A stretch of DNA of 64,000 nucleotides from positions 59,159-123,158 of IMG/VR virus record IMGVR_UViG_3300014024_000069; one strand, given 5' to 3'. A program made the position numbers and the translations under genes. Positions 35,315 through 58,661 of this stretch are shown in pieces. Source of the DNA: a virus (taxonomy: Duplodnaviria > Heunggongvirae > Uroviricota > Caudoviricetes). Within the stretch, counting starts at the first letter, position 1. Each line of letters opens with the position of its first letter. A model generated the notes under the pieces. It was not told where the DNA came from and searched no databases. It saw only the letters and a list, made by a program, of their open reading frames with translations.

Positions 35315-36004
35315 TTATCCCAATGGGCGTTCAGATTGCCCTGACACCCAATCAGTGACCTCTCTGAATACCTCATTGACGAACCCTTGTTGGATTTGCT
35401 TTTCACCTGAGTAGTTGCTTGTTCCTGTGGCGCCGTCGAACGTTTCAACACCCCAGCTTTTCACGTATTTTTCCCATCGATGGTAGGAGTCTTCCCCAAA
35501 ACCTTCTGTGGATTCTTCTGAGCGTCCGTATAGGTAGATGCGTAGTTGCTGGTCTGGTTTGTGTTTGCGGTACAGGATTGCGGTGTCGATGTAGTCGCCG
35601 TTGTATTTGGTGCTGTTGGGGGTTTCACCCATGTTTCGTTCGTAGCAGGCCCGAGGGTATGCGACGTCTATTCCGGGTAGGAAGTTGAATGATTCCCCAA
35701 AATCACGGGCGTTGAGCACGGTGAGGATGTTTTCTTCTGGGAATGACACACTGTCGCCCGCGACGTGTACGGGTTTGTTGTTGAGGATGTTTCTGCGTTC
35801 AGTAATTTTCGCCGTGAGCCACTGCAAGTACTCTTTATGTTGCTCTTCTGGTGTTTTCTGCGCGAATGTTTGCCTCACGCTAGGGGCGCGTAGAACACCA
35901 CTAGCGGATGCTGGGCTACGCCCCATAGCTCTTGTGTTGAGGCGACCGAAAATGTACCTTTGCCGCTCCGTTCCTGGCCCGCCCTGAGCCATGCCGTTGT
36001 TCAT
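35315..36004 (-). CDS. Hypothetical protein (229 aa) carrying an N-terminal leader MNNGMAQGGPGTERQRYIFGRLNT shared with the ArdC-like protein
   Basis: ORF; the first ~22 aa are near-identical in pattern to the N-terminus of the 57402..58661 protein. The rest is unrelated and not recognised. Confidence 0.55.
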   Translation of the reverse strand: MNNGMAQGGPGTERQRYIFGRLNTRAMGRSPASASGVLRAPSVRQTFAQKTPEEQHKEYLQWLTAKITERRNILNNKPVHVAGDSVSFPEENILTVLNARDFGESFNFLPGIDVAYPRACYERNMGETPNSTKYNGDYIDTAILYRKHKPDQQLRIYLYGRSEESTEGFGEDSYHRWEKYVKSWGVETFDGATGTSNYSGEKQIQQGFVNEVFREVTDWVSGQSERPLG

Positions 36005-36132
36005 ATTATTGTCCTACCGCCTGTTGTTTTCTTTGTCCTAGTTTTTGTTTAAAACACGCACTCCTCCCCGCCCGGCGCGCCCGCAGTTTTTATTGCGGGC
36101 GCGTTTTCTTGCTGGGTGGGTGGTGTTTGCTT

Positions 36133-36837
36133 TTACTGTATCCCGTTTGGTGTTCTGCAGCCTTTATCTTGCGGGATGGCTGAGGTTATTTTCCATCCGT
36201 TTTCGGTTTCTTGCGCGAGCACGATCCAGGATGATGAACCGTTCACAGTGTCGGCGGCAGCGTGATAGTCAACGTAACGGACTTGCTGTTCGTTTTGCTT
36301 CATGCACAGCACCATTGCCTCCTCGCGGGCGCCGGCGTCACGGTGCGAGGGGTAGGGGTATTTGTCTGCGTCGAAGACGGTGACGGAACTGAGAATGTCG
36401 GGTTTGCCCATGAAAATCCCAGTTGAGTTTCTTCCGGTTTTCAGCATGCCGCTGACTGCGGGGGTGTATATGTCGGATTTGCGGTCGTCTTTGATGAGTC
36501 GGGTGTCTCCTTGCACGTCCGCTAACCCACCGAGTTTGACGTTTTCCCAGGTTTGCCGGTAGAGGGCGGTGGCCGCGTCCACTGCGTCGTGGGCGTAGGT
36601 GGTGTCGCTTGTTTTGTCGTTGGTGATGTCAACGTTTGCCATTGGTGCGGTGTCTGGGGTGGTGTATGCGTCCACGGTAGGTGTGTTATGCCAGTAGAGC
36701 TGTGTGACAATGCCGAAGGCGGCGACCACGGCTACCGCGCCGCTGATGATGGTTGTGGTGCGGTATTTGCGTTTAGCGTTGTCGTTTTCCCAGGTGTGTG
36801 TGCTTGTGGCGGCGAGGGTGGTGTTATTTCCGGGCAT
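36133..36837 (-). CDS. Membrane-anchored (N-terminal TM) extracytoplasmic protein (234 aa)
   Basis: TTTIISGAVAVVAAFGIVTQLYW TM helix near the N-terminus; Thr/Asp-rich ectodomain. Confidence 0.5.
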   Translation of the reverse strand: MPGNNTTLAATSTHTWENDNAKRKYRTTTIISGAVAVVAAFGIVTQLYWHNTPTVDAYTTPDTAPMANVDITNDKTSDTTYAHDAVDAATALYRQTWENVKLGGLADVQGDTRLIKDDRKSDIYTPAVSGMLKTGRNSTGIFMGKPDILSSVTVFDADKYPYPSHRDAGAREEAMVLCMKQNEQQVRYVDYHAAADTVNGSSSWIVLAQETENGWKITSAIPQDKGCRTPNGIQ

Positions 36838-37450
36838 CGTCGATTTCCTTTGCCTTTTTCTTTGTCATGACGGTGTACATTTGGTGGACTCGCCATACTT
36901 TGTCGTCGCCGCGAACAAGGATAGTGATGACATCATCCTCAAAAGGTTCACTATCGGCGGTGGTTTTGAGGCGCATTTTCGCCATGACAAACCGCACAGG
37001 GCGGTTGTCGTCGCTTTTCATCCCCAGCATTTTACTGTTGTCGAAGTGAGTGCCAAGGATTGAGTCTTGCTCATCGTCAACATAGCCGTGATTGCCGTTT
37101 TTAGTGTATTCAAACAGTTCCTTACGTGAAAGAACCTCCACCGGCATGAAATCCTGCGTCGTACCCGTGGACGGCAGAACATTGGGGCGCGGCAGTCCCG
37201 TGTAATTCCCGTCAGCCTCCGCAGCGTATTTCAACACCGCCAGAGCGTTACCCTGCGCTATATCCTCCATGCGTTCCACATCAGAAGGTGGGGGCTGTTT
37301 ATCAACAATGCTGCGGGAATATGACACATACGTGTCAAGCACATCCCCTTTTCTACTTTCCTTCACCCATATGCCAATACACCCAATGGTGAGGCAGATA
37401 GCCAAAATAGCGGTCACTGCGGCGATGATTTTGTACTTCTTGTCCCCCAT
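36824..37450 (-). CDS. Membrane-anchored or lipoprotein-like protein (208 aa)
   Basis: MGDKKYKIIAAVTAILAICLTIGCIGIWV: signal-anchor with Cys. Confidence 0.5.
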   Translation of the reverse strand: MGDKKYKIIAAVTAILAICLTIGCIGIWVKESRKGDVLDTYVSYSRSIVDKQPPPSDVERMEDIAQGNALAVLKYAAEADGNYTGLPRPNVLPSTGTTQDFMPVEVLSRKELFEYTKNGNHGYVDDEQDSILGTHFDNSKMLGMKSDDNRPVRFVMAKMRLKTTADSEPFEDDVITILVRGDDKVWRVHQMYTVMTKKKAKEIDDARK

Positions 37451-37452
37451 GA

Positions 37453-38394
37453 TTACTGTGCCGCCTCTGGTGCGTTGGTGTACAAGTCACTAAGCTTCCA
37501 CCCGCCATTGGCTTTATGCCACGTGGTGAACACATCCAGCCTTGTTGGTTCAGCAATCACATTGCCTGCAGCATCAAAGAAACCAATCTCCATATGGTAG
37601 GAACGCCCTGTTTTATTCCCAGTGTCATTCCACCCAGTGGCAGTTCCCTGAATGCTTTCCTCCAACAGTGTGACCTTTGTGTAAGCGTCTTTTTCCATCA
37701 ACTGTTCCCATCCTGCCGTGGGGTTAGGGTCAGCTGCGCATACGCTCTTAAGGCGACGCGCCAACGGGGCTTCAATCCACTGTGACTGATACCCAGCAAT
37801 AGCACACGTCATGTGCGGGTAATCCTGCACCCTGAAAGTGTACATGTTACTAATCATGTCTTTAGCCCGCTGCGACAATGCCTTGTCAGTACGCTCATTA
37901 GCAAGCTTCTTCCAATCCTCAGCAGGCTTACCCCCCACGTAATTATTACGCTCAACAGGGTTTTTAAACACATCACCCCACAAGGTAAGCCCAGACTCAT
38001 CAGAATGATTCCCACGGTAACGTTGGTACACAGTCTCCCCATCAGGATTCACCAACTGAGCCTTATTCTCACCAGGAAGCGGCGCACGAGTCTTATCATT
38101 CTTCTTACTGGGCGCTGAACTAGTTGTCGGGGCGGAAGACACAGACCCCTCACCCGTGGTACCACCATCCCCATCAGAACGCCCCCCGCCACGATACTGC
38201 TCACCCAACACCGTGGAAGAACCACCACCTCCATCCTGCTTGCCACTATTACGGTTCATCAACACAAAAACCGCCCCCGCAACAGCAACCACAACAACCG
38301 CAATAATCACCGCAGCCTTAACAAGCGTCCTACGCTCCTCAGCCGTATACGAACGCCTCTTCTTTTTCTTATTCCGACCATCATCAACAGCCAA
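37453..38394 (-). CDS. Membrane-anchored extracytoplasmic protein (313 aa) with a Gly/Ser/Thr-rich linker
   Basis: Basic N-terminus, TM helix AAVIIAVVVVAVAGAVFVLM, then a G/S-rich low-complexity linker and a C-terminal globular domain. Confidence 0.5.
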   Translation of the reverse strand: MAVDDGRNKKKKRRSYTAEERRTLVKAAVIIAVVVVAVAGAVFVLMNRNSGKQDGGGGSSTVLGEQYRGGGRSDGDGGTTGEGSVSSAPTTSSAPSKKNDKTRAPLPGENKAQLVNPDGETVYQRYRGNHSDESGLTLWGDVFKNPVERNNYVGGKPAEDWKKLANERTDKALSQRAKDMISNMYTFRVQDYPHMTCAIAGYQSQWIEAPLARRLKSVCAADPNPTAGWEQLMEKDAYTKVTLLEESIQGTATGWNDTGNKTGRSYHMEIGFFDAAGNVIAEPTRLDVFTTWHKANGGWKLSDLYTNAPEAAQ

Positions 38395-38539
38395 AACAAA
38401 ACCCTTTCACAAAAACAATAGAACCAAAAAATTACTACCACCCATTATATGAGTCTTCACCAAACACAATCAACGAACAGCAACACCACCAAAACAACCC
38501 CTCAAGCAGAAGCAAAATAATCACCCACAAAAACACCCA

Positions 38540-38583
38540 AACCCGGCGCGCCTGCGTTTTTGTTTATGGTGGCGCGCCGGGTT
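38540..38583. terminator. GC-rich palindromic hairpin (AACCCGGCGCGCC...GGCGCGCCGGGTT) flanked by an A-run on one side and a T-run on the other; likely terminator for the upstream large gene
   Basis: 13-bp perfect stem with a T-rich loop; on the minus strand it is followed by TGGGTGTTTTTGTGGG. Confidence 0.6.
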
Positions 38584-38610
38584 GTTTCCCTGTTTTTTAT
38601 GGTGTTGGGG

Positions 38611-41600
38611 TTACCATTTGCGGTTGCCTTTCCACATTGCTTCTATTGTGGGGTCTAGGCGTTGTCCGCTGGGGATTGGGTTGCCGAGTTCTTGTGGGTG
38701 TTTTGCGTTGAGTGGGCGGAATAAGTAGGGGCCTACGTTGGGGCGTAGGACGCTGGTGTTTACGCTCACTTGGTCGGGTTGTGGGGCATCGTCGGTAGAT
38801 GATTCTGCTATCTTCCCGTTACCTACATACATCCATGTGTGATGTCCATCATAGGAGCCTAGATCTGCTTCATTGACAAATAGGTCTCCTGGTTTGAGGT
38901 CTTCTATTTTAATATTTGAGGATGTTTGCGGGGTTGCGAGGGTAATGTTTTGTTTTCCCTGCATATTAGTGACAAGCTGGCTTGTGACAAAGGGAGATGC
39001 GTTGACATCGCCAAACCAGATCCCAGCTCCGTTCCAATATGCCCATGACACGAAACTTGAACAGTCGGTGTAAGTAGGTCGTGGGTTAGTCAACGTGGTA
39101 CGCAAACTGCTCATACTGTAGTAGGTTTTAAGTCCCTGGAACTGGCCTGTTTCGTTGGCGTAGTCGGTGGCGATTTTCACGACACGCCCGCTGAGGGTGT
39201 TTTCGTTAACGTCCATTTGACCGCCCTCGCCCTTGCTGCTGAGTGAGGATGCGTCGCATTCCGCGCCGACCTCGGCAAAGATGGTGGGCGACGTGTCGGT
39301 GGACAGTGCGTCTGCTTTAAGGTCGCGGGATAGGCGCACCTCGATTTGGCGTGCCGCGTCCCAGTATTTGTCAACGAGTCCCATTTCCACGCCGGTGCTT
39401 GTTCCTGCTTGTCCTTCACCGAGCACGGATCCTTGGACGCGGGAGGCTGCTGTGTTCCATTCTCCTTGTGAGCTGGCGGGGGTGAGTCCTTGTGATTTTC
39501 CTTTGAGCCGGTCGAAGAAGAGCTGCGCCGCGAATCCGGGGTCCATTGCGCGTTCCCACACGGCCCATGTTTGCTGTTCGGCGCGGCTGCCGTCGGGGTT
39601 GAGCTGTACCTGCTGTTGATAAATACCAACGGAGTTCAGGTCGGAGTCGCTGTCGATTTCACGCCTCGGATCGTCCATTGATTTCGCCATGTATTCGGAT
39701 CCGCCGGGAATGATGGAACCGCTACCACCTAGCGGTGAGGCTACACCGTTGGTGGGTGATTTGCCGCGCCACGGCCTGCCGCCGTAGTTGCCGTAGTTAG
39801 TGAAACGGGTCTCATTGAAACTGATTTTCAGTGCGGACAGCACTGCTCGTTTGTCGAACCCCATTTTCTGCCCCACGGCAATGATGGTGCGGATATTGTT
39901 GATTTGGTTGGCAGTGAACATGCCGTCACCCTCGGTGACTTTATGCGGGTCAGAGACACTGTTCCCACCACCACCTGATTGTTGCTGGTGCTGGGCGGGT
40001 GCTTGCGCACGTCCCCCGCCAGCGTTGCCTCCACTGTTGCTTCTCCCCCCACCGTTGTTGTGACCACCATTTTGGCGCGCCGCTGCCGGTGCGCTGACAC
40101 CCCCGCCGCCTGCAGGTGCTGCGGCTGCGGCTTGCCCTGGGTTTAACTTGGTGGACTTATCCAAATAGGGTTGCGGGTTGGTGCTACTTGCGGCACCACC
40201 TTTCCAGCCCCCAGGGTGGATTTCAAAGTGCAGGTGCGGGCCTGATGATTGACCCTCGCTGCCTTGTTTAGCGATGACTTGACCTGCTTTAACCTTGTCG
40301 CCTGCCTTAACCCGGAAGGTACTGATGTGCATGTGCCCGTACACGTGGTCAATTACTTGCCCGTTGATGTTGGATTCAATGACAATCCAGTATCCGAAAC
40401 CGCTGGCGGCGCCGGCTTGTTTCACGGTGCCGTCTGCCCATGCGAGGATTTCATCACTTCCACCAGCTGCGGTGGCAATGTCCATGCCGTAGTGGTTTTC
40501 GCGCCCTGGTCCACGGTAAGGGCTGGTCACAACTGCCCCGTTGTACATGGGGTAGATGAGTTTACCCTCGAAGTTGCCGCCCGCGCCTGCGCGGCAACCG
40601 GATCCGTCATTATCGACGTTGGGCAGCCCGTCCGCCACGGCACTGCGGGCACCTTCCAGGTAGTTTTGGTATTTGCCTGAGCTGTAGCCCTTGAAGCCTG
40701 CCCACCCGTCACGGTCTTTGGCGACCTTGGCCACGCGCACATTGTTCCATGCGTTTTCTAGTTTCTCTGACCATTGGTCCGCCTCGCCACCGTATTTGGT
40801 GTCTTTATTAATACCGAACAAGCCCTTGTGCTTCCCGGAAGACCACCCAGGATCCCCGCCTGAGATTGACAGAGCGACAGCGGCCGAGTGAATGGAATCC
40901 TCGTCGTTGAAACCGGCTTTCCTGGCGATGGCAACCAGCTCACCAACGGTGTACTTTTTGCCTTCTTTTGGCGGTCCAATAGCATCACCACATGTGGTTC
41001 CTGATTCGCTATCAGCATAAGAGTCGCTGCCAGCCTCATTGTCGTAGCGTTGGCACAGGTCATTGTCGGAAGGGTCGTCGTTTTTCATGATGGACGTGCC
41101 GCTGATGCTGCCAATCCCCGCTGCCATTGCGATGAGAATCACAATAAGAAGAATGGAGCCTGCCGCCACCAAGGCTGTGCCCACGCCACCAACGTTGCCG
41201 AGTCCAGGGATGTTAGACATGCCCATTTGCGGGGGTTTGCGTGGCGGCATGCTGCCGCCCATCTTGTCGTCATCGTCTTTGTTGCGTTTCGGTTTGTCAC
41301 GCATCTGGTCGCCGGTGACATCATCTTCTAGGTTGGATTGTGGACCGGCACCCACTTCCCTGCCAGCGAGTCCGCCCCTGTTGGTTCTGGGCACACCGAA
41401 CAGGTCTTTAGGTGTGGCAGCATCCCCACCAACACCCTCTGCGTCTGGGGTGTTTTTCTTACCCGCAAGGTGCCCTTGTTTGTTGGCGGCGTTGGTGCTT
41501 AATGCCTCTGGATCCGCGTTTTTATCAGGATTACCGAACGGATTCTTCCCATTCGGCTTCCCTAGTGGAGTGCCAAAAGGATTGTTCTTACCATTGGTGT

Positions 41601-42501
41601 TGGCGGCACCGGTTGGTTGCGCTCCACCATTGCTGAACAGTCCACCATCCCCGAAACCGCCGAGCTTGTCTATGTCGCTGGGGTCGGTGGGCAATTCCTC
41701 CAGGATTGGTTCATCATTCCCGCCATCGCCACCGCTGGCGGATTTGCCTGCTGGGGTTCCCGCGCCGCCTGCCGCACCATCAGGGGTTCTTTCAGCACCC
41801 CCTGGCGGCTGTTCCCCCTGCCCAGTGCGGCGTGGTTCCCCGCTGTTGTCGCGGGGTGTGGCATTGTCTGTGGGGCTGCTGGTGTCTTTTTCTGTGCCGC
41901 TGAGGCTCGCGGCGTTCGCATCGGTGGGGCGGGACTCGTCGCGGGGTGTTGTAGTATCCCAGGGGTTGTTTCTATTCGTGTCCTTGCCTGGTGTTCCGAA
42001 TAGGTTGGCTGCGTTTTTCTCGCCGGCGCCGTTTCCGTCGTCGCGGTTGTTGCCTAGCCCGAAGGGATCCTGCGGGTCATCACTATTTCCCGATTCGTCG
42101 CTGTATCGATTATTGGGGTAGTCTTCTGCACTGTTGGCGGGTTCCCCATCGCGGGGTTTTTCGTTGATGTCGTTGAACTGTACGTCATCGCCGTCTGGGT
42201 TGCGGGTGATACGGGGTTGTGCGCTGCGGTCGCCTGATGCGCGATGAACGAATCTCGCTTCCTCCTCAGGCATATCCACAAGGTGGGAGTAGTCGTTGTA
42301 TACCCCATCGTTCATTGTGAGGGGTGAGGGGTTGTTTCCCGCTCCGATTCCATCGGCAAGGTTACTTGCCTCCTGGTCGGTGAGGTTTTGTCCTTCTAAT
42401 TGTTCCCCTAGTTCGCGGGCTGTGCGCTCGTTGTCGCGTTCCAGCGATGAGCGGATTTCCTCATTGATGTTGTCGTCATTTGGTGTGTTTTTTTGTGCCA
42501 T
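38611..42501 (-). CDS. 1296-aa membrane-anchored multi-domain peptidoglycan hydrolase: ~450-aa G/P/N/D-rich low-complexity N-terminal region, one TM helix, lysozyme/transglycosylase-like module, M23 (LytM) peptidase, and a C-terminal NlpC/P60 cysteine peptidase
   Basis: TM helix ALVAAGSILLIVILIAMAAGIG. The M23 signature is HYGMDIATAAG...DHVYGHMHIS...GPHLHFEIHPGG. The NlpC/P60 module is TYTDCSSFVSWAYWNGAGIW...GDLFVNEADLGSYDGHHTWMYVGNGKIAESS (Cys...His...His). The SLT-like segment is ...VALSISGGDPGWSSGKHKGLFGIN.... Confidence 0.8.
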   Translation of the reverse strand: MAQKNTPNDDNINEEIRSSLERDNERTARELGEQLEGQNLTDQEASNLADGIGAGNNPSPLTMNDGVYNDYSHLVDMPEEEARFVHRASGDRSAQPRITRNPDGDDVQFNDINEKPRDGEPANSAEDYPNNRYSDESGNSDDPQDPFGLGNNRDDGNGAGEKNAANLFGTPGKDTNRNNPWDTTTPRDESRPTDANAASLSGTEKDTSSPTDNATPRDNSGEPRRTGQGEQPPGGAERTPDGAAGGAGTPAGKSASGGDGGNDEPILEELPTDPSDIDKLGGFGDGGLFSNGGAQPTGAANTNGKNNPFGTPLGKPNGKNPFGNPDKNADPEALSTNAANKQGHLAGKKNTPDAEGVGGDAATPKDLFGVPRTNRGGLAGREVGAGPQSNLEDDVTGDQMRDKPKRNKDDDDKMGGSMPPRKPPQMGMSNIPGLGNVGGVGTALVAAGSILLIVILIAMAAGIGSISGTSIMKNDDPSDNDLCQRYDNEAGSDSYADSESGTTCGDAIGPPKEGKKYTVGELVAIARKAGFNDEDSIHSAAVALSISGGDPGWSSGKHKGLFGINKDTKYGGEADQWSEKLENAWNNVRVAKVAKDRDGWAGFKGYSSGKYQNYLEGARSAVADGLPNVDNDGSGCRAGAGGNFEGKLIYPMYNGAVVTSPYRGPGRENHYGMDIATAAGGSDEILAWADGTVKQAGAASGFGYWIVIESNINGQVIDHVYGHMHISTFRVKAGDKVKAGQVIAKQGSEGQSSGPHLHFEIHPGGWKGGAASSTNPQPYLDKSTKLNPGQAAAAAPAGGGGVSAPAAARQNGGHNNGGGRSNSGGNAGGGRAQAPAQHQQQSGGGGNSVSDPHKVTEGDGMFTANQINNIRTIIAVGQKMGFDKRAVLSALKISFNETRFTNYGNYGGRPWRGKSPTNGVASPLGGSGSIIPGGSEYMAKSMDDPRREIDSDSDLNSVGIYQQQVQLNPDGSRAEQQTWAVWERAMDPGFAAQLFFDRLKGKSQGLTPASSQGEWNTAASRVQGSVLGEGQAGTSTGVEMGLVDKYWDAARQIEVRLSRDLKADALSTDTSPTIFAEVGAECDASSLSSKGEGGQMDVNENTLSGRVVKIATDYANETGQFQGLKTYYSMSSLRTTLTNPRPTYTDCSSFVSWAYWNGAGIWFGDVNASPFVTSQLVTNMQGKQNITLATPQTSSNIKIEDLKPGDLFVNEADLGSYDGHHTWMYVGNGKIAESSTDDAPQPDQVSVNTSVLRPNVGPYLFRPLNAKHPQELGNPIPSGQRLDPTIEAMWKGNRKW

Positions 42502-42857
42502 ATTATTCGTGTCAACCCCGCTGTGGTTGTGGTTAAAGTTTTGCTACGCGATTTGTGAATTATACCGCACCAGTGGTTTCGGAAGTTTCGTTTTGGTGAC
42601 ACAGCAACGGAAACAGAGAATAAGGCAAGGGCAACCAAACAGGAAATCTCTATGTAGCACAGGATGAGCAGTAGGCAAGGGTCCAGTCACCGTGGCAATT
42701 GAACAGTTCTTATAGTGGTTTGTCGCCGCCATATTCCCGAACAAAGAGGACATGAGAAAACCCGCGCTGGACACAGTTACCAAACGCGGGTTACGCTCAT
42801 TGCCTATACACACCTTTACCCCCCTAGAATACAAGAGGGGGTAAGAAGAGGCATAGG

Positions 42858-43889
42858 CTACTTTTTCTTCTTCCTCCGCCTGCGGCGTGGCTTATTGCTC
42901 AGGTAAGCGTTACTAATGACCTTGAAACTTGGCCTACTCAGGAAGTAGGGCGCTTTTCCTTCCTTGTGGTGGAACACTACACCTTCTGCCAACATATCAG
43001 GTTTGACAATAGATTTCATGCCGTCTACCTGCGCAACCAGCTCAGAGGCAGTTTCCGGCAGGGCGAAATCCTCAATGACTGGGACACTGAGTTCATTCAT
43101 CCAGTTTTCCCATTGGTCGCGGGGAACGGGTCGCCCAGTATTGAACACGCCGAACAGGAAGAATCGCTTCTCGTCTAGTCCAAGCTTGTTGCTCTGAACT
43201 TTAGGTCCAGCAACTTCACCTTGGATAGACCACCCTTGTGGAAGGTGCTCCAGCAGGAAGTCAGCATCAAGCACATCATTAAAGTGTGATGTTTCGGGTT
43301 TAAGTTCGGCTTGCCTACCGTAGACACGGAGGGTGCCGCCGTCGTTGACTACGGTCATTGAGTCGCCGTCAACCTTTTCGGTGGCAATCCACGGTTCAGC
43401 TTTGATTTGGTCGTAGAACTTTGCTAGATTCTGCACGCGCTCAGCGTCTGAGCGGATGGCGAAACGGTCATTCCACTCACCCACAACATCGTTGGAGACG
43501 GGCGTTTCAGGCTCGTATTTGGTGATGCCTAGTGTCTCCGACACGTCAACATCGTTGGGCACCCCGTCTAGTTCGGGGAACAATGCCAACGGGAAAAGCA
43601 CACCCTGACTCAGGTTGCCGCGCAAGCGAATGGTCTTAATGACCAGTCGATTTACGCCATCACCAAAGTCTTTTGCCTCGTGCGTCGGTAACCCAAAGCG
43701 TTCATCATTAACGGGGATGGCAGCGTCAATTTCAGCAAACACCGCGCGGTCGCCCTTATGAAAAACGCCTTTGCGCGTGACTACTTCCCATGCGCCGACG
43801 ATGGAGATTTCCAGGGCATCGGCATTTTCCGCTGGTCGAACATCATCAACATTGACGATTCGGACTAGCTTGCGAATATCTTCACTCAT
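42858..43889 (-). CDS. ATP-dependent RNA ligase, Rnl5/DraRnl-type (N-terminal OB-like domain plus nucleotidyltransferase), ~343 aa from the ATG at 43889
   Basis: Strong SD AAGGAGGA 6 nt before the ATG. The N-terminus VRIVNVDDVRPAENADALEISIVGAWEVVTRKGVFHKGDRAVFAEIDAAIP matches the DraRnl/NgrRnl N-domain pattern (..hPnADrLel....g.qvVv.kG.f..GD.vvy...dsvlP). Motif I is ATEKVDGDS (KxDG). Confidence 0.65.
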   Translation of the reverse strand: MSEDIRKLVRIVNVDDVRPAENADALEISIVGAWEVVTRKGVFHKGDRAVFAEIDAAIPVNDERFGLPTHEAKDFGDGVNRLVIKTIRLRGNLSQGVLFPLALFPELDGVPNDVDVSETLGITKYEPETPVSNDVVGEWNDRFAIRSDAERVQNLAKFYDQIKAEPWIATEKVDGDSMTVVNDGGTLRVYGRQAELKPETSHFNDVLDADFLLEHLPQGWSIQGEVAGPKVQSNKLGLDEKRFFLFGVFNTGRPVPRDQWENWMNELSVPVIEDFALPETASELVAQVDGMKSIVKPDMLAEGVVFHHKEGKAPYFLSRPSFKVISNAYLSNKPRRRRRKKKK

Positions 43890-44075
43890 ACATCCTCCTT
43901 TATGTTTTCTTATAGCTTCATCAGTAATTATAGCGGTGTTGTGGACTGCCAGGCAACTTTGGGGGTATTGGGTTCTACCCACTTCCTTCACGATAATCAC
44001 CAGTTTGTGGGGAAGTTGGGGAATGAGGGGCGCAGGGCGTACCGCACTCTGCACCCACAATCCTTACTGGGTAAG

Positions 44076-46700: not shown

Positions 46701-46704
46701 ATTC

Positions 46705-49908: not shown

Positions 49909-50000
49909 TGAGTGTTTTCCTTTCCTTATGGTGGGTGTCTAGGGGGCGATAATGTAGGGAATCTTAGGGGGTGCTAAAACTGATCAGTATTGAGGTTTGC

Positions 50001-50501: not shown

Positions 50502-50550
50502 CCCGCGATCCTTCCTCTGATGAGCTGAATGGTACCCAGTTAGTAAACCG

Positions 50551-50605
50551 CAGGCACATCAAAAACCGCAACGTGCGGGGGTAACGATACCACCCCCGCA
50601 CGTTG
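50551..50605. terminator. Bidirectional rho-independent terminator between nrdE and the HNH gene
   Basis: AAAAACCGCAACGTGCGGGGG-taacgatacca-CCCCCGCACGTTGCGGTTTTT: 18-bp perfect stem with an A-run before and a T-run after. Confidence 0.8.
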
Positions 50606-50687
50606 CGGTTTTTAGCAATTACTCTCAGCCTGATAGTCCCTTAGTCAAGCTGCGAGACTTGACTAAACATGGACTAAACACTGCAGT

Positions 50688-52907
50688 CTAGATTTGGCAA
50701 CTAACACAGCCTTCAACCTCTGTACCCTCCAATGCTGACTGCCTGATGCGCATGTAGTACATGGACTTCACAAACCCTGACTTCCATGAAGTCTCAGGAT
50801 CAAATAGCGCCAGATTGCCTTTGTCATTCTTCTCACGCCCGCGTGACCATGCATAAATGTGAGCCTTGTTCACATCCCTAGTTGTACTGTCGCTAGGCAG
50901 GAACAGCGTCAAACTCATCCCCTGGTCCACGTGCTTGCCTGCCACGGCGTAGGTGTCAATCAGCGCCTTGTAACCCGTCTCATAGGCATCCCGATAGAAG
51001 CTCATATTGTCGTTCGTCATGCCCGGCGCGGGGTAGTAGACGCGGCCTACTTTGCCTTCTTTACGGATTTCGATGCGGGCGGGGATGGGGTGGAGGCTGC
51101 TGGTTGCTGAGTTGATGTAGCTGATGCTGCCGTTGGGGGCTACTGCCATGAGGTAGGCGTTGTAGAGTCCGTGTTGTTGGATTTTTTGGTCGAGTTGTTC
51201 CCAGTCTTGTTGGGTTGGGCACCATTGGTTGTGTTTGGTGAATAGTTCTCGGATGGTGGGGGTTTGTGGGGTGGTGCGCCAAATACCGTTGACGTAGTGT
51301 GTGAGGGCTTTGGATGCGCCGGTGTGGTCTTGTTGGGCGTAGTCGGATTTGTGGAAGTCGTGGAATGTTTGTCCTTGTTGTTGGGCGATGCGGCAGGGTT
51401 CGTTGAGTGCGTGGTAGCGCATGGTGGCGAAAAAGACGTTGGTGAAGTCTAGGGCTTCGTCGGATCCGTAGGGGATTTGTTGTTCTCCCAGGAATCCGTG
51501 GAGGTTCATTGCGCCGATGCCGATGCTGTGGGTTTTTTCGTTGCCGTTTTTGATGGTGGGGACGGCGGCGATGTCGGTGGTGTCGCTGACTGCGGTGAGT
51601 GCTTGGACGGCGCGTTCAACGGTGTTTTTGATGCTGCCGGTGGTCATGGTTTTGGCGATGTTGATGGATGCGAGGTTGCAGGAGATGTCTCGTCCGATGG
51701 TTTCGCGTTCGCCGGTGTGTTGGTTGTAGATGCTGGGGGTGTTGATTTGCATGATTTCTGAGCAGAGGTTGCTCATGCTGATGCGCCCGTCAATGGGGTT
51801 GTGTTCGTTGACGGTTTTCTCGAAAATGAGGTAGGGGTATCCTGACTCGAATTGGATTTCAGCGATGGTTTGGAATAGTACGCGGGCGTTGACTTTGTAC
51901 TTTTTGATTCGGTCGTCTTCCACCATGTTTTCGTATTCGTCGTCAATGGAAATATCCGACATGGGTTTGCCGTAGACACGCTGTACATCGTAGGGGGAGA
52001 AAAGGTACATGTCGCTGTTGCTGCGCGCCAATTCAAAGGCTTTATCTGTCACCATGATGCCCATTGACAGGGTTTTGATGCGTACTTTTTCGTCGGCGTT
52101 TTCGCGTTTTGTGTCCAGCATTTTCATGATGTCGGGGTGGTGGCAGGACAGGTACACCGCACCTGCGCCTTGGCGTGCCCCTAGCTGGTTGGCGTATGAG
52201 AAGGAATCCTCCAGGAGTTTCATGACGGGGATGATGCCTGATGATTGGTTTTCCACCCCTTTGATCGGGGCGCCGGCTTCCCGGAGGTTGGTGAGGCAGA
52301 TGCCGACACCCCCACCGATTTTCGACAGCTCTAGAGAAGACTTGATGGCATCCCCGATGGAGTGCATGCTGTCTTCTACCCGGATGAGGAAGCAGGATAC
52401 GTGTTCGCCGCGTCGGACTTTACCGGCGTTGAGGAATGTGGGTGTTGCGGGTTGCAGCCGGTTAGTCATCATTTCCTCAATGAACTGTTCGGCTTTGTTT
52501 TTGTCTCCGCGCGCTAGGTAGAGGGCGCACATGACTACGCGGTCTTCGTAGCGTTCCAGGTAGCGGTCGCCGCTGGCGTTCCTCAGTGCGTACTGTTGGT
52601 AGAACTTATAGGCCCCCATGAACGTGGGGAACCGGTATTTAAACGAGTAGGCATATTTGAACAGGTTTTTGATGTCTGCTTTGTCGTACTGTCCGAGAAT
52701 GTTTCCGTCGTAGTAGTTGTTGTCAACCAGGTAATCAAGTTTTTCCTCCAGTGTGTGGAAGAACACGGTGTTTTGGTTGACGTGTTGTAGAAAGTATTGG
52801 TTTGCGGCTTCCCGGTCTTTGTCGAACTGGATTTTCCCGTTTTCATCCAGCAGGTTCAGTTCGGCGTTGAGGGACAGGTAGTTCTCCTCAGATACTGTGT
52901 TTCCCAT
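50688..52907 (-). CDS. nrdE: Ribonucleotide reductase class Ib alpha subunit NrdE (~739 aa from the ATG at 52907)
   Basis: SD AGGAGA 9 nt upstream of [14 protein letters not shown]. Class I RNR signatures are NLCSEI and [10 protein letters not shown], with a C-terminal Tyr-containing tail; N-terminal region typical of NrdE. Confidence 0.9.
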
Positions 52908-53195
52908 GTGATATTCGTCTCCTAAGTTGCGTGGGATATAGAACAAGAAAAAATTGGCACCCCGGCGTGGGCGTGCACTTCCTTATTTGCCTTGTTGCGG
53001 ATTGCTCTGTGTTGTGCCCGCCGAGGTGAAAGGGGTTAAGTTGCAAGCGCTGCTTATGTAGGGGCGCTAGAGCTTAGCTTACAGGGTTGTGTACAGGCGC
53101 TGGGGTACTGCAGTGGTGTTGTGTGCCGCCCTCCCATTTTGGGGGTTGCTGAGGGCGGCACATGAATCCATTCTATGCGGTTTTCTGGCGGGTGC

Positions 53196-53441
53196 TTATA
53201 CCGATGCGGGGGTGAGGCTGTCTGCCAGCTCTTTGAGCTTATCGACGCGGAAACCGCACCACTTCTCCCCCGAGTCTGTCACAACAATGGGCATGGAGAT
53301 GAATCCTGTTGACAGGGCCTCTTGGCGGCGTTCCTCATCGTTCTCAATGTTGTATTCAACATACTGAATGCCATGTTTTTTTAGGGTCTTTTTGGTCATT
53401 TTGCAGGGCATGCAGCCGCTTGTTGTATACACAGTGGTCAT
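53196..53441 (-). CDS. nrdH: NrdH glutaredoxin-like redoxin (81 aa)
   Basis: CMPC active site and WCGFRVD (cf. the WSGFRPD motif of NrdH). Confidence 0.85.
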   Translation of the reverse strand: MTTVYTTSGCMPCKMTKKTLKKHGIQYVEYNIENDEERRQEALSTGFISMPIVVTDSGEKWCGFRVDKLKELADSLTPASV

Positions 53442-53590
53442 TGGTGTTTTCCTCTTTCAATTAGGTACCATTGGGTTTTACTTCACACGCCATGCGTGAG
53501 GGCGATAGCATCTAACCTAGCACGATGTGTGAGACCATAAGACAGTACCCACCCCATGAGGGTGAGCAATATTTGAACAGTAGGTAATCA

Positions 53591-55411
53591 TTGAAAAAAA
53601 CAGGGAAAATCGCAGGTAAACTCAAAAAAACGGTGACGATAATCACAATGCTGGGGCTGACCGCAGGCACCCTCGGAGCAGGGGGATTCACCTACCTCTA
53701 CGCCACCGCAGACATACCGCACCGCGCCGGGACGCATACGATGTCGGAAATTCATTTTGTCACTTCTGATGGTGTGAATGTTGCGACGGTGCAGCCACCA
53801 GATGGGGAGAAGCAAGGCACGTCGCCTGCCGCTATTTCGCAGTATATGAAGAACGCCATTGTTGCTTCTGAGGATGGTGGGTTTTGGGAGCATTCGGGGA
53901 TAAATCCTAAGCGTATTGCGGCGGCCACGGTTCAGCATGCTTTGGGTCGTAGTGGTGGTGGCGCATCTACGATTACTCAGCAGTTGGTGAAAAACACCAT
54001 TGTGGGTGATGAACATTCGCTTGATCGTAAGGTTCGTGAGGCTGCCTATGCGTTAAAGGTTACGAACACGAAAACTAAGGATGAGGTGCTGAGTGATTAT
54101 CTGTCCATTGTGTATTTCGGACGTGGCGCGTATGGAGTTGAGGATGCGGCACGGAAGTTCTTTGGGGTCAGCGCGCTTGATTTAAATCCCGCCCAGTCGG
54201 CGCTTTTAGCGGGTATGGTACAGTCCCCCTCGGCGTTGGACCCTGATGTCAATCCAGAGGGCGCTAGGGAGCGTTTTAACTACGTTGTGGACCGCATGAA
54301 GCACGATGGGTATATTCCGCAGGGCGCACAAGTGGAGTTCCCGGAGCTAGTGTCGCCGCCTCCGCCTAAAGTCACTGTTGGTGTGGACGGGGATTATGGG
54401 CATGCGGTAAGCATGGCGTTTGCCGAGTTGGAATCAATGGGCATTGATCGCACCACTTTGCACAATGTGGGTGCCACGGTGACGTTGACTGTCAACGATG
54501 CGAAACAGCGTGCCGTACAGAACATTGTGCGCAGTCACATTGGTGGGGATTTGCGGGCTGCTGTGGTGTCGATGGACTCTGCTAACGGTGGTGTCGTTGC
54601 CATGTATTCGGGTGAAGACGGTTTGGGATTCAACTACGCTACCGCAGGGCAGATGACTGGTTCCACGGCTAAGGTTTTTGCGCTTACTGCCGCTATGGAG
54701 CGCGGTATACCCGCGTCAAAGACGTACTCGTCTGCGCCCTACAATGAGGGCGGCGTGAGCGTCACAAATTCCTCTGTTGCGTCCTGCACGGCATGTAGTA
54801 TCACCCAATCCACGGTGGAGTCGTTGAACACCTCGTATTTGCGTATTCAGAATGATATTGGTGGTGCTACGGAAACCCAGAACATGGCGTGGCGTTTGGG
54901 TGTGCCTCGTGAAATAAACGGTGAGGCAAGCCTCGGCGGCGACCAGCCCTACGACGGAATTGTGCTAGGGCAGTACCTCACCGCACCCATTGACATGGCG
55001 AACGCTTACGGCACTATCGCCTCTGGTGGTAAACGTCACCAAGCCCACATCGTTGCGGGCGTGAACACCATGAAGAAAAGCACACTGTACGAGTTCCACG
55101 GCAAAGAAGACCCCGTAATCAGTGAACAAACCGCAGCGCAAGTTAGTAACGTGCTCTCTGGGGTTGCTGACTACAGTAATCATAATCAACTCGCCGGTGG
55201 CGGCGGGAAAATGAAAACAGGGACAGTCCAGCTAGGTTCAACAGGGGAAAACCGTGATGCGTGGACAGTGGGTTTCGTTGATGGTGGGCTATCCACAGCC
55301 GTGTGGGTTGGCAGCGACAATGGTGTGCCTTTGTACTACGGAGGTGGGAAAATGTGGGGTGCCACATTGCCCGCAACTATGTGGAGGCAAACCATGAATG
55401 CCATTCGCTGA
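53591..55411 (+). CDS. Bifunctional class A penicillin-binding protein (GT51 transglycosylase plus transpeptidase), 606 aa, TTG start
   Basis: N-terminal TM helix. GT51 motifs: EDGGFWEHSG, GGGASTITQQ, RKVREAA. Transpeptidase motifs: STAKVF (SxxK) and KMKTGT (KTG). Confidence 0.8.
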   Translation: MKKTGKIAGKLKKTVTIITMLGLTAGTLGAGGFTYLYATADIPHRAGTHTMSEIHFVTSDGVNVATVQPPDGEKQGTSPAAISQYMKNAIVASEDGGFWEHSGINPKRIAAATVQHALGRSGGGASTITQQLVKNTIVGDEHSLDRKVREAAYALKVTNTKTKDEVLSDYLSIVYFGRGAYGVEDAARKFFGVSALDLNPAQSALLAGMVQSPSALDPDVNPEGARERFNYVVDRMKHDGYIPQGAQVEFPELVSPPPPKVTVGVDGDYGHAVSMAFAELESMGIDRTTLHNVGATVTLTVNDAKQRAVQNIVRSHIGGDLRAAVVSMDSANGGVVAMYSGEDGLGFNYATAGQMTGSTAKVFALTAAMERGIPASKTYSSAPYNEGGVSVTNSSVASCTACSITQSTVESLNTSYLRIQNDIGGATETQNMAWRLGVPREINGEASLGGDQPYDGIVLGQYLTAPIDMANAYGTIASGGKRHQAHIVAGVNTMKKSTLYEFHGKEDPVISEQTAAQVSNVLSGVADYSNHNQLAGGGGKMKTGTVQLGSTGENRDAWTVGFVDGGLSTAVWVGSDNGVPLYYGGGKMWGATLPATMWRQTMNAIR

Positions 55412-55510
55412 CCAATCTCTGGCCGGGTAGATGTTGCGCTTTCTGGCTGGCGTATGTATTCTTTGTTTTGTCCAAAACAATCACAACCAGAAGAAAGACA
55501 AAAGAATACA

Positions 55511-55809
55511 TGGCTAAAACTTCATTTGACTCCTTGGTCGTAAAAGCCCCTGTGGTCGTAAAAAAGAAGGGGTCTGAGTCGGAAATTTGGTTCGACGAAC
55601 TCAACCGAGAAACACGCGATGTCGTGGCGCAAGCACTCATGGACAGGTCGAAAAGCGGTTCATGGATTTTTGAGCGTTTGAAAAACCCACAAACAAGCGA
55701 ATCACGCGCCTACCCGCTACGCTTCTCCGCTTTTAAAGAGTTCAGGAAGCGGTTCCAAGAGAAGTACAAAACACTGCAGAGCTTCCGCAAAGCAGAGAAG
55801 GGTGCATAG
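55511..55809 (+). CDS. Small basic hypothetical protein (~99 aa from the ATG at 55511)
   Basis: The part of ORF 55303..55809 that follows the PBP stop: MAKTSFDSLVVKAPVVVKKKG.... Confidence 0.4.
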
Positions 55810-55811
55810 AA

Positions 55812-57050
55812 ATGGCAACATCCTTCGACCATCTCCTGGAACTCAACGACAAAGTTACCCCAAAGGGTTATCACCCAGGGCGCTTTGTGGAAAGCAAAGA
55901 CGGAGCAACCGGTTCATGGTGCCCCGACAAACCACTTCCCAAACAGCCCAGCGACGATGACATCCGACGTGCTGTGGAGGTATCCGGCTTTGATCCCAAT
56001 GAGTGGACTATTGCGAATGACCGTATGTCGATCTCAACCTGCGCGGCAATTGGAGCTGATGGAACACCAGACCCCACCCTGCGATGGTACAAGATCAACC
56101 TTGTACGCAAAACAAAAGACTTCATTGAAGAAGCCGATGAACTTCTACTGGAACTGATTAAAAACAGGTCAGGCAAGAAGAAAAAAGACAAGTCCAAGCA
56201 GAAAAAAGTGAAAGTCCCCTATCGCTTGCTGTTCATCACAGACCAGCATTTAGGCAAATCCGAGCGGGACGGCGGGGGAAGCAAGATTCTCACCCAGCGC
56301 TGGATTGACGGCGTAGAAGAAGCCCTTTCCGATGGACCCTTCAAGGAAGTACACATCGCAATGGGCGGGGATACCATTGAAGGGTATGTGTCGCAAAACG
56401 GCAAGAACATTGCCACCACAGACATGACCCTACAGGAATCCATGCGCCTGGCACAGGGACTCCTGTTGGACACCATCATGAAAGCACATGCGGTGTGCGA
56501 GAAAGTATCAGTATCAGTGGTTCCCGGAAACCACGGGGAAACCACCCGTGTTCAAGGCCGCCCCATGCGCGACAGCTACGATATTATGATCGTCGCCAAC
56601 GTTCAAGACACCATTGATTTCCACAACAAGAACAACCCTGATGACCGCATCAATGTGGAGTTCTACTACCCGAAAGAAAACCGTGTTGACGTGTCGTTTA
56701 CCTTTGGTAAATCCAACATCACTCTTGTTCACGGTCACACATTCGGCAGCGGCGGGCAAGAAAAAGGTGCCTATGATTGGTGGACCAAGCAAATCGTGGG
56801 TGGTCAGCCTTCATCAGCGTCACATATTCTGCTTGCTGGGCATTTCCATAACTGGCGGACATTCAACATGTCAACAGATCGTCAAGTTGTGTTCGGTGCC
56901 GCCCTTGAAACCTACTCTGCGTGGTTTGAGCATAAAGGTAACCCGCGAACACAAAGCGGAATCATGAAGCTTGATATTGGCTACCAGCGTTTCTACGGGA
57001 TTGGGTTGTGCCCATCCCCACCAGAGGAAAAAGAGCTTCTAGGTCTATAA
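55812..57050 (+). CDS. Calcineurin-like metallophosphoesterase (412 aa)
   Basis: Motifs ITDQHLG (DxH), GGDTIEG (GDxxD), GNHGE (GNH[DE]) and GHFHNW (GHxH). Confidence 0.65.
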   Translation: MATSFDHLLELNDKVTPKGYHPGRFVESKDGATGSWCPDKPLPKQPSDDDIRRAVEVSGFDPNEWTIANDRMSISTCAAIGADGTPDPTLRWYKINLVRKTKDFIEEADELLLELIKNRSGKKKKDKSKQKKVKVPYRLLFITDQHLGKSERDGGGSKILTQRWIDGVEEALSDGPFKEVHIAMGGDTIEGYVSQNGKNIATTDMTLQESMRLAQGLLLDTIMKAHAVCEKVSVSVVPGNHGETTRVQGRPMRDSYDIMIVANVQDTIDFHNKNNPDDRINVEFYYPKENRVDVSFTFGKSNITLVHGHTFGSGGQEKGAYDWWTKQIVGGQPSSASHILLAGHFHNWRTFNMSTDRQVVFGAALETYSAWFEHKGNPRTQSGIMKLDIGYQRFYGIGLCPSPPEEKELLGL

Positions 57051-57072
57051 CCCCTCATTAAGGAAAAGGTCT

Positions 57073-57291
57073 GTGAATACTGGTGATGATAATATAATGC
57101 CCAGTATTTACAGGCCATCTTTTACAAGGACAACAAAAATGATGAGCGAATCAGAAAAACTCGTTGATGACATTGACATCAACGACGTAAGACACTTTGC
57201 TGAACTTCCCGACGACACCATTATCACCGTTGAGGAAAACGGCGAATGGGTAGAAACCACCGTCGGGGAACTAAGAGCAGAGGAGCAGTAA
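57073..57291 (+). CDS. Small hypothetical protein (72 aa)
   Basis: ORF only. Confidence 0.3.
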   Translation: MNTGDDNIMPSIYRPSFTRTTKMMSESEKLVDDIDINDVRHFAELPDDTIITVEENGEWVETTVGELRAEEQ

Positions 57292-57401
57292 AGCACCATC
57301 CGCCCCGCGACCGTCGGTAGACGGTGGGGCGGTAACGAAAGCACCCCTTTTTTACGTCAGTGAAAAACTGCGTGTGGGGGTGCTTTTCTTTAGGTTAATC
57401 C

Positions 57402-58661
57402 CTATTCAGCTTTCTTTCTCCTGGTTGTGCGTTTTGTTGCCTTCTTTGTCGTGCGTTTGCGGGGTTTCCGCTTAGTTGTGGTTTTACCTGCGGCTTTCTT
57501 TTCTGCGTAAGCTTTACTGGACCGCTCTGACACGGCTTTCGCCTGGTCTATCTGATTCTCACCATTGACAATATCCTCCAGCGTTGAAAAGTACTTCTGC
57601 ATACCTTTCTGAACGCCACCCATAGCGTCTTTGATTTTCTGCTCATCGCCCCCAGTCCAACTAGCAAGGTAAGCCTGCGATGACTTTGAGGTATTCCCCT
57701 CACCATAGGCCCTCAAAATGCCGTAAGCAACCGTCTCCGCCTCCGCTTCTGCCTGTTCTCGTGTGAACTTTCGGTCTGGGTTTCGGGCGATGTGTCCACA
57801 CATGATGTGCCCCATTTCATGCGCAAGCGTCTCAGCTGTCTGCATTCCCTCCAATTCTTCACGTAGAACAATATAAGGCTTGCCGTCTTCCCCTAGTGTT
57901 GCGTATCCTTGTGGCGATCCGATTTCGCTTTGCGGCAATCGCTTAATCTCAATATCCATTTTCTTGGCGACAGCTTCCAAATCCTGAATCATGGAGTCAT
58001 TTGTTTTAGCCTTTGCCATGATTTCTTGTTGCTTTTGGAAATAGTTGTTCAGGGGACTTTGGGGTAGGCTTTTCACCGATTCGTCTAGGTCTTCATTTGA
58101 GAAAACACTATATTCCTTGAACGCTGTGTAATGGGTTTCTTTTTTATCCTTATCTTCCTGTTTGTCATCACTGCCGTTTTCGCTTCCGTTGTTATCGTCT
58201 TCTTTCTTCTTTTTCTTGACAAGGATTGGGCGCAGAATCTTTGCCGCCTTAGCGCCTTTACGCACCTGATAGCCGTCTTCTGCCCATTGCTTATAGGTTC
58301 GGAATGTATGCCCAGTCGGTTTCTGCAACATGAGCAAAATAGTGTTGTTGAACGAATAACTATAGCGACTACGCAGGAAATCCAGGTACTCATCCAATCC
58401 TTCCTGACTTTCCATGATGTTCCGCATGCCGTCACTTAGCTCAGACAGCATCGCTTCCGTAACATCCTTGCCATGCAAACCGGCAAACGACACGCGACCC
58501 TCACTGGTGGTGGCAGCGGAAAGAGTCGCCCCGATAGAGGGAGCTAGGCTCGCCGCCCCCGCTGCGGCGGCCGCTGGGGGTTCGTAGTTCGTGTTTTCCC
58601 TTCCGAAAATCATTCTCTGATGCTCTGAACCTGGTCCGCCATGAGCCATTCCTTTAACCAT
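57402..58661 (-). CDS. ArdC-like protein (ssDNA-binding ArdC-N domain plus C-terminal HExxH metalloprotease) with a 60-aa N-terminal extension carrying the shared leader
   Basis: Strong SD GAGGAA 6 nt before ATG MVKGMAHGGPGSEHQRMIFGRENT. The ArdC-N pattern is SFNNTILLMLQKPTGHTFRTYKQWAEDGYQVRKGAKAAKIL. The metalloprotease motif is LAHEMGHIMCGH. An internal poly-Lys/acidic linker is present. Confidence 0.7.
   Translation of the reverse strand: MVKGMAHGGPGSEHQRMIFGRENTNYEPPAAAAAGAASLAPSIGATLSAATTSEGRVSFAGLHGKDVTEAMLSELSDGMRNIMESQEGLDEYLDFLRSRYSYSFNNTILLMLQKPTGHTFRTYKQWAEDGYQVRKGAKAAKILRPILVKKKKKEDDNNGSENGSDDKQEDKDKKETHYTAFKEYSVFSNEDLDESVKSLPQSPLNNYFQKQQEIMAKAKTNDSMIQDLEAVAKKMDIEIKRLPQSEIGSPQGYATLGEDGKPYIVLREELEGMQTAETLAHEMGHIMCGHIARNPDRKFTREQAEAEAETVAYGILRAYGEGNTSKSSQAYLASWTGGDEQKIKDAMGGVQKGMQKYFSTLEDIVNGENQIDQAKAVSERSSKAYAEKKAAGKTTTKRKPRKRTTKKATKRTTRRKKAE

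Follow-up and report, generated by a model that had tools for sequence, protein, structure and literature searches.

Background

In bacteriophage T4 a capsid targeting sequence of about 10 residues is carried by at least six proteins (IPI-III, Alt, gp67 and gp68) and ends in a Glu, behind which the prohead protease cuts. One of these cargoes, IPI, is an anti-restriction protein. The motif cut by the protease is [LI]-x-E in T4 and [A/S/G]-x-E in phiKZ and SPN3US. In this work we analyzed a stretch of 64,000 nucleotides from a Caudoviricetes virus (hereafter the window; positions 59,159 to 123,158 of IMG/VR record IMGVR_UViG_3300014024_000069) in which two otherwise unrelated proteins, one of them similar to the anti-restriction protein ArdC, begin with a common leader of 24 residues. 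The peptide was kept while the DNA that encodes it drifted, and it probably serves as an address tag.

Conserved terminal peptides also direct proteins into other shells. Encapsulin cargo-loading peptides and microcompartment encapsulation peptides consist of 10-20 terminal residues joined through a poorly conserved flexible linker to unrelated cargo enzymes; encapsulin shells have the HK97 capsid fold, and encapsulin peptides are mostly C-terminal. In phage P1 the anti-restriction proteins of the Dar system (DarB and its partners) are packaged and injected, and an N-terminal region is needed for packaging. Dar relies on ordered helper proteins and is not known to have a short tag common to its cargoes.

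In the giant phage SPN3US the head proteins gp45 and gp225 have N-terminal propeptides of 20 and 24 residues which are cut after A-x-E, and many head proteins of giant phages are ejected into the host (PMC10052503). Phage proteins combining ArdC-N with a metallopeptidase domain have been predicted to be packaged and injected (PMC5512222), and ArdC is known in huge phages from 102 genes in 101 genomes (bioRxiv 10.1101/2025.02.27.640493).

Results and Discussion

The shared leader and its two bearers

The leader is found on a protein of 229 residues (35315..36004, minus strand) and on an ArdC-like protein of 419 residues (57402..58661, minus strand), both encoded by clean open reading frames. 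It occupies codons 1-24 in each gene, at 35933..36004 (minus strand) in the former (MNNGMAQGGPGTERQRYIFGRLNT) and at 58590..58661 (minus strand) in the latter (MVKGMAHGGPGSEHQRMIFGRENT). The two peptides align without gaps and are identical at 17 of 24 residues; BLASTP of the pair gave an E value of 3e-8, which is still significant when all of the roughly 2,700 pairs that the proteins of the window can form are considered. A sequence-only reading of this DNA had proposed a common N-terminal leader on two unrelated proteins, and these values confirm that it is real. The positions given in that reading were also right, but both genes lie on the minus strand, which is open over 229 and 419 residues, whereas the plus strand is stop-ridden over both coordinate pairs and holds no open reading frame there. 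In both genes the first ATG has an in-frame stop 3-4 codons upstream and a Shine-Dalgarno sequence (AGGA or GAGGA) 6-7 nt before it, indicating that the leader is the true N-terminus. A start at Met-5 was rejected, since the Shine-Dalgarno spacing suits Met-1 in both genes.

Each leader is followed by a linker and then by a domain of its own. In the 229-residue protein the linker, rich in Ala, Ser, Pro and Arg, covers residues 25-55 (35840..35932, minus strand) and leads to an ORFan domain; this protein has no Pfam, PHROG or PDB match. In the ArdC-like protein the linker covers residues 25-64 (58470..58589, minus strand) and is of low complexity (70% Ala, Gly, Ser, Pro and Thr), with no counterpart in other ArdC proteins. 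It is followed by an ArdC-N domain, which binds single-stranded DNA (residues 65-187; 58101..58469, minus strand; Pfam ArdcN PF08401, E=7.7e-15, above cut-off), and by a zincin metalloprotease domain of the M78/IrrE type (residues 234-313; 57723..57962, minus strand; Peptidase_M78 PF06114, E=5.6e-5, 23.4 bits against a cut-off of 22) containing HEMGH at residues 281-285 (57807-57821, minus strand). The protein also matched PHROG 7245, an anti-restriction protein, with an E value of 2.8e-20. With ArdC-N and an HExxH zincin both above threshold, the 419-residue protein is a member of the ArdC family. It differs from the typical members by an acidic/basic insert in ArdC-N and by a 75-residue C-terminal extension ending in a very basic tail (KRKPRKRTTKKATKRTTRRKK; 57405..57509, minus strand; pI 11.7), which typical ArdC lacks.

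Alignments of phage homologues to the ArdC-like protein begin at residues 62-83, and that of typical ArdC at residue 67, indicating that leader and linker are an addition to the ArdC core. The leader is thus foreign to other ArdC proteins, as had been claimed, and the N-terminal extension that had been put at 60 residues behind the leader does exist, although it measures 40 residues after the leader and 64 in all. In AlphaFold2 models the predicted local distance difference test score (pLDDT) was 24-32 over both leaders and about 25-32 over the linker of the ArdC-like protein. The model of the whole 229-residue protein scored 35 and was unusable, and that of the ArdC-like protein was confident only in the zincin domain (pLDDT 74-85). 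A search of Rfam returned tRNAs only, with no RNA element under either leader. No promoter motif was shared by the two genes; an enriched word, TAAACAA, belongs to hairpin loops.

Conservation of the peptide but not of the DNA

Among the 17 identical leader residues, 15 have any codon choice and eight are encoded by different codons. Nucleotide identity over the two leaders is 48/72, and the 100 nt upstream of the two genes are unrelated. These differences ruled out a recent segmental duplication of DNA, the local event that could have explained the similarity away. Over the remainder of the two proteins a local alignment scored 33 against 35 +/- 6 for shuffled sequences, no better than chance. 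Directly behind the leader, however, the divergence is not as complete as had been stated: faint in-register similarity persists to about residue 47-54, where A40-P41-S42-[VI]43, T46 and [FL]47 stand at the same positions in both proteins (permutation test p=0.017; register 0 was the best among 17 offsets). When both N-termini were compared by BLASTP without composition correction, identity was 46% over 54 residues, with an E value of 4e-9. In our view a segment of about 50 N-terminal residues was duplicated long ago; purifying selection held its first 24 residues, and the remainder decayed into low-complexity linker.

The variants seen in relatives follow the same pattern. Five DNA variants of the leader of the 229-residue protein were seen; they differ synonymously at G4 and R14, and all encode the same peptide. 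The linker of this protein, which includes the APSV..TF echo at residues 40-47, shows a 5-residue indel (AINTK) among relatives. The leader of the ArdC-like protein varies by H7N, Q15K and R16K, and further synonymous changes occur in relatives at G8/G9, beside an H7N change. Because synonymous sites between the two genes are near saturation (8/15) while 71% of the residues were kept, and because residues 25-54 decayed almost to noise while the leader did not, residues 1-24 bear the signature of selection. The leader is an old peptide module under purifying selection.

Distribution of the leader

Six-frame scans and a local hidden Markov model (HMM) found no third copy of the leader in the window or in some 25 kb of additional flanking sequence from relatives. 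An exhaustive search of 1.84 billion cluster representatives with a HMMER profile of the leader gave four matches, all in these two gene families, and a word-indexed search with the same profile returned only one fragment of the same gene. Among 5.8 billion proteins, just two are homologous to the 229-residue protein, at 92-96% identity; for the ArdC-like protein there are three homologues at 89-95% identity, followed only by ordinary ArdC proteins at 26%. The back-translated leader pattern had zero matches in one genome per bacterial and archaeal species. In viral and metagenome contigs the same or a similar DNA pattern was confined to this one phage lineage, with exactly two leader matches on every contig long enough for both genes; all known copies belong to this single lineage and are at least 89% identical. 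When distant relatives of the phage were sought through the adjacent exonuclease gene, only the same three IMG/VR contigs were returned.

Several weaker candidates were set aside. A looser DNA pattern (GGPGxE..FG[RK]) gave 11 extra matches in viral contigs, all of them internal or out-of-frame chance occurrences. Searches of PDB sequences with the leader and with the 229-residue protein yielded nothing; a match of the leader to GPGSEFQRY begins at residue 1 of its chain and may be the remnant of a cloning tag. The pattern [ILVM]FG[RK].N occurs three times in the six frames of the window, in the two leaders and in a DUF8176 membrane protein encoded beside the ArdC-like gene (59014..59742, minus strand), which starts with MALFGKNN and continues into an acidic low-complexity tail. 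MALFGKNN may be a faint echo of the leader core IFGRxN, but the pattern was chosen post hoc and the three occurrences are not significant alone. A full third leader copy in the DUF8176 gene was rejected, because the extension beginning MVKQ is untranslated and the real start is the ATG at 59742, behind a strong Shine-Dalgarno sequence (AAAGGAGGA).

The searches would probably have picked up a third copy that differed from these two as much as they differ from each other, while shorter or weaker versions would probably escape. The search of the whole replicon that the sequence-only reading had called for thus ends with two bearers and no more. In that reading, a leader confined to these two proteins in all relatives and left unprocessed had been named as evidence against targeting; of these two features, the confinement is what was found. 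As in T4, the same short N-terminal peptide is present on unrelated proteins of one phage, with two bearers per genome.

Role of the leader

Both proteins combine a conserved terminal peptide, a disordered linker and an unrelated domain, and this architecture argues for an address tag. That the leader brings the two proteins to one binding site is quite probable. It is also possible, though short of an even chance, that the partner is the procapsid and that the leader is a docking or cargo-loading peptide. In this scheme the 24-residue tag, held on a flexible linker of 30-40 residues, would lead two unrelated domains to the same binding site in the interior of the assembling capsid (scaffold, core or portal). 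The ArdC-like metalloprotease, with its single-stranded DNA-binding domain, and the 229-residue ORFan would then be taken into the capsid and reach the next host along with the DNA, and a prohead protease may trim the tag by cutting at G-[ST]-E13.

The capsid is ranked first among possible partners because the phage is a giant one, because of the T4 and SPN3US precedents and the predicted packaging of ArdC-N proteins, and because of the shared G-[TS]-E13 and the basic tail. The G-T-E or G-S-E at residues 11-13 is the sole [SAG]-x-E site shared in at least the first 60 residues of the two proteins, although such a motif is frequent by chance. The basic tail of the ArdC-like protein would suit storage with packed DNA. 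More specifically, the leader could tentatively be viewed as a cargo-loading tag peculiar to this lineage of huge phages, in which 24 residues and a linker would load arbitrary proteins for co-injection into a Corynebacterium-like host. A stranger variant within that tentative view would replace the capsid by another phage-built compartment, for example a cage of the three SPFH proteins encoded 3-5 kb away. The encapsulin-type GSL consensus is not in the leader, and no encapsulin or HK97-fold match was found among the window proteins scanned.

Several observations weigh against loading into the capsid. The tag has only two bearers in complete genomes of about 321 kb, and one of them, the ArdC-like gene, lies within a replication and recombination module and not among structural genes; no capsid, portal or prohead-protease gene occurs in the roughly 90 kb read of about 321 kb. 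Conservation of the leader continues for 11 residues past E13, to residue 24, unlike the T4 sequence, and [SAG]-x-E is common by chance. The known copies, all at least 89% identical, come from a lineage of an uncultivated phage that is nearly clonal in public data, and give no comparative depth, and the AlphaFold2 models were uninformative on the leader. The need to inject ArdC is also weaker than had been assumed, since ArdC of R388 acts when it is made in the recipient and its export is unnecessary (PMC7213743).

The main rival is a replisome docking motif, in which a Q-x-x-I-F core would tether both proteins to a phage clamp-like factor or to the host beta clamp. We regard it as unlikely, but it accounts for several features. 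The clamp-binding consensus is QL[SD]LF, and QRYIF and QRMIF of the two leaders fit the bacterial clamp-binding pentapeptide Q-x-x-[LIM]-F; moreover the motif is terminal and sits on a flexible linker, as is usual for clamp-binding motifs. Such tethering would parallel the recruitment of Spartan to PCNA through a PIP box. In structure, the C-domain of ArdC is most closely related to Spartan and IrrE (PMC7213743). In the replication module the ArdC-like gene is flanked by genes for an SbcD-like exonuclease and a primase, and genes for a clamp-like factor, a single-stranded DNA-binding protein (SSB), an SbcC-like protein and a helicase are found about 8-15 kb away, just beyond the right end of the window.

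On the other hand, relatives P0005 and P0006 have K (KKMIF and KRMIF) in place of Q15, although Q is the most conserved position of clamp motifs, and 17 invariant positions over 24 residues, including GMAxGGPGxE, go far beyond what a pentapeptide needs. None of the other replication proteins in the roughly 21 kb of module read has a terminal leader motif. The 229-residue gene stands outside the module, behind an envelope-hydrolase operon, and the clamp assignment comes from one PHROG match, with no Pfam support. The protein in question has 389 residues, is encoded at 6892-8061 of L036, immediately to the right of the window, and matched the PHROG 'DNA polymerase processivity factor' with an E value of 5e-10. 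Placed beside the SSB, the SbcC-like protein and the helicase, it is a candidate sliding clamp of the phage.

The leader could also be a protease site, which the ArdC-like zincin or a second M78 peptidase would cleave, in cis on the ArdC-like protein and in trans on the 229-residue protein, to release or activate both. HEMGH is intact in the ArdC-like protein, and the second M78 peptidase is encoded at 23357-23896. IrrE and ImmA relatives cut specific partner proteins (PMC7213743), and the metallopeptidase domains of polyvalent proteins with ArdC-N have been proposed to free neighbouring domains autoproteolytically (PMC5512222). However, a cleavage site need not lie at the extreme N-terminus, the loss of 13-24 disordered residues would have no obvious consequence, and the protease activity of R388 ArdC is dispensable for anti-restriction (PMC7213743), so that we consider this role improbable.

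A degron or regulatory tag, through which an AAA+ machine of the host or the phage would remove both proteins on the same schedule, or which would tune translation as a nascent peptide, would agree with the extreme N-terminal and probably unstructured position of the leader and with the 1601-residue ClpB-like AAA+ protein that the phage encodes; protein-level conservation with synonymous drift suits any function at the level of the peptide. The N-terminal degrons known so far, however, are far shorter than the leader and not as well conserved, degradation is not an activity of ClpB-type proteins, and no known arrest motif is present in the leader. Nothing specific favours this explanation, which we hold to be slightly less probable still than a protease site.

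Export was the alternative offered in the sequence-only reading, and as a classical secretion signal it fails: the leaders have no hydrophobic h-region and no twin arginine. Mean Kyte-Doolittle hydropathy over 15 residues reached at most 0.24 in the first 75 residues of the 229-residue protein and 1.25 in those of the ArdC-like protein, in its Ala-rich linker; the grand average of hydropathy (GRAVY) of the leaders is -1.0 and -0.8, there is neither RR nor Cys in them, and neither protein has a hydrophobic segment. Lacking a hydrophobic core, RR and Cys, the leader is not a Sec, Tat or lipoprotein signal. A dedicated non-Sec route would fit the position of both genes, each of which directly follows genes whose products are secreted or are bitopic membrane proteins, namely three transmembrane (TM) proteins and a hydrolase with TM, SLT, M23 and NlpC/P60 segments at 36133-42501, and Excalibur, MmpS-like and DUF8176 proteins at 59014-62200. 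Besides having no hydrophobic core, twin arginine or lipobox, the two sequences show neither feature of type VII (ESX) substrates, the WXG hairpin and the C-terminal YxxxD/E; moreover the window showed neither a secretion ATPase nor a secretion channel, and an extracellular role for a single-stranded DNA-binding protease is not obvious. We therefore give export very little credence. Equally implausible is a functionless remnant, left behind when modules were shuffled or when one gene converted the other, which would agree with the mosaic nature of huge-phage genomes and with the common descent of a longer N-terminal segment seen in the faint similarity to residue 47-54 or so, but which is contradicted by the selection signature on residues 1-24 and by the exclusion of a recent copy at the DNA level.

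The phage and the gene neighbourhoods

The view that the replicon is a phage was borne out by an rIIA/rIIB pair, 11 tRNA genes and the contigs that carry its genes. The same or near-identical genes are found on viral contigs in IMG/VR, 148-234 kb long, and on metagenome contigs with lengths of 320,831, 321,201 and 321,202 bp, indicating that the element is a huge phage with a genome of about 321 kb. In Ga0099623_1000002 the counterpart of the window lies at about 164-228 kb. No near-identical DNA was found in the GenBank phage and plasmid collections. The window encodes, among others, a class Ib ribonucleotide reductase, an HNH endonuclease, an RNA ligase, a primase and an SbcD-like exonuclease. 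Corynebacterium phoceense has an NrdE with 60% identity to that of the phage, and the MmpS-like and Excalibur proteins and a Gordonia-phage homologue of the ArdC-like protein are further actinobacterial pointers, which hint at an actinobacterial, Corynebacterium-like host. The right flank of the window holds more of the replication module; the left flank has no functional annotation, with just two weak matches to PHROGs of unknown function.

Upstream of the 229-residue gene, a minus-strand gene at 38611-42501 encodes a protein of 1296 residues whose long N-terminus is disordered and which also contains a TM segment and domains of the SLT, M23 and NlpC/P60 families, an architecture which recalls the wall hydrolases of Gram-positive conjugation systems. 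It is followed by genes for three small bitopic membrane proteins (36133-38394, minus strand) and then by the leader-bearing gene. Between the last membrane-protein gene and the 229-residue gene lies a GC-rich hairpin of 14 bp (36074..36105), suggesting that the 229-residue gene is transcriptionally set off from the upstream operon. The sequence TAAACAAAAAC recurs at 36051, 38566 and 19653, each time on the minus strand, in or beside intergenic GC-rich hairpins such as GGCGCGCC...GGCGCGCC; these hairpins are probably terminators or processing sites of the phage.

The three SPFH/Band 7 genes are arranged in tandem at 30071-32440 (minus strand), with one clear and two weak matches, and their products could form a membrane cage. 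The second M78/IrrE-like peptidase (minus strand) is a stand-alone protein (E=3e-12). The ClpB-like protein, encoded at 24500-29305 (plus strand), is about double the normal length; its Pfam matches fall into pieces at residues 185-225, 562-758 and 1278-1501, which implies two large insertions, and no intein domain was reported. A gene for a protein resembling class A penicillin-binding proteins, with transglycosylase and transpeptidase domains, is found at 53591-55411 (plus strand), adjoined by genes for glutaredoxin and the class Ib ribonucleotide reductase.

The left part of the window is of unusual composition. Over positions 1-12000 GC skew is -0.23 to -0.36 and AT skew +0.2 to +0.5, the plus strand being rich in C and A, and the first 9 kb contain few credible open reading frames; gene callers applied to relatives place just small genes there. 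Next come three large paralogues on the plus strand (9080-12394, 12451-13803 and 14581-17040) of 1104, 450 and 819 residues, which are about 27% identical over hundreds of residues and have similar N-termini (MSxETIxxL). They have no Pfam match above cut-off and no meaningful PHROG match, and the 819-residue protein has no phage match by tblastn. The tRNA genes form four groups (8294-8379, 19655-20189, 29874-29960 and 33543-34005), including runs of five and four.

Significance

Judged from the residues that were kept and the synonymous sites that were not, the leader is a real, selected and lineage-restricted peptide module. If it serves for packaging, no capsid-loading peptide outside the T4 group would have been defined by sequence before it, and it would be the first evidence of huge phages delivering ArdC-type proteins with their DNA. 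This would bear on the deployment of ArdC, known in about 100 huge phages, and with a portable tag of 24 residues one could load cargo into phage heads. A leader that docks at the replisome would instead be a lineage-specific clamp- or hub-binding peptide, and the ArdC/Spartan-like protease would then be tied to replication and not to anti-restriction. Either way, the leader provides a handle on two otherwise opaque proteins of an uncultivated phage.

Comparison with known systems

Like the T4 capsid targeting sequence, the leader is a short N-terminal peptide common to unrelated phage proteins with an anti-restriction protein among them. It differs in being a block of 24 residues with the candidate Glu (E13) in mid-block, in its long linker, in having two bearers and in showing no sequence similarity to the T4 peptide, which is conserved only up to the cut and carried by six or more proteins. 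With encapsulin and microcompartment peptides it shares the arrangement of a conserved terminal peptide and a flexible linker on unrelated cargo; the consensus differs, however, those peptides having GSL-type motifs or forming amphipathic helices, and the leader is N-terminal. The P1 Dar system resembles it in having anti-restriction cargo and, if the leader is a packaging signal, in the use of an N-terminal region for packaging. The PIP box of Spartan and clamp-binding motifs in general are likewise short terminal motifs, in the case of Spartan on the flexible tail of a DNA-dependent metalloprotease that is recruited to a sliding clamp, and QRxIF resembles Q-x-x-[LIM]-F, but the block conserved here is much longer and its Q is not invariant.

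The ArdC-like protein has the ArdC-N domain and HExxH metalloprotease of ArdC from IncW plasmids (R388 and pSa), and is distinguished from typical ArdC, to which it is 26-28% identical, by the leader, the 40-residue linker, the acidic/basic insert and the 75-residue C-terminal extension with its basic tail. SPN3US gp45 and gp225 and head proteins of phiKZ and 201phi2-1 likewise belong to giant phages, and have propeptides of 20-24 residues cut after [A/S/G]-x-E (PMC10052503); those propeptides are not reported to share sequence, whereas here the sharing is central. The leader, whose likely action resembles that of the T4 sequence, the giant-phage propeptides and the encapsulin peptides, is classed with none of them. 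As a kind, the shared terminal address tag is thus familiar, while the sequence of this one, its bearers (with an ArdC-like protein among them) and the phage that hosts it are new.

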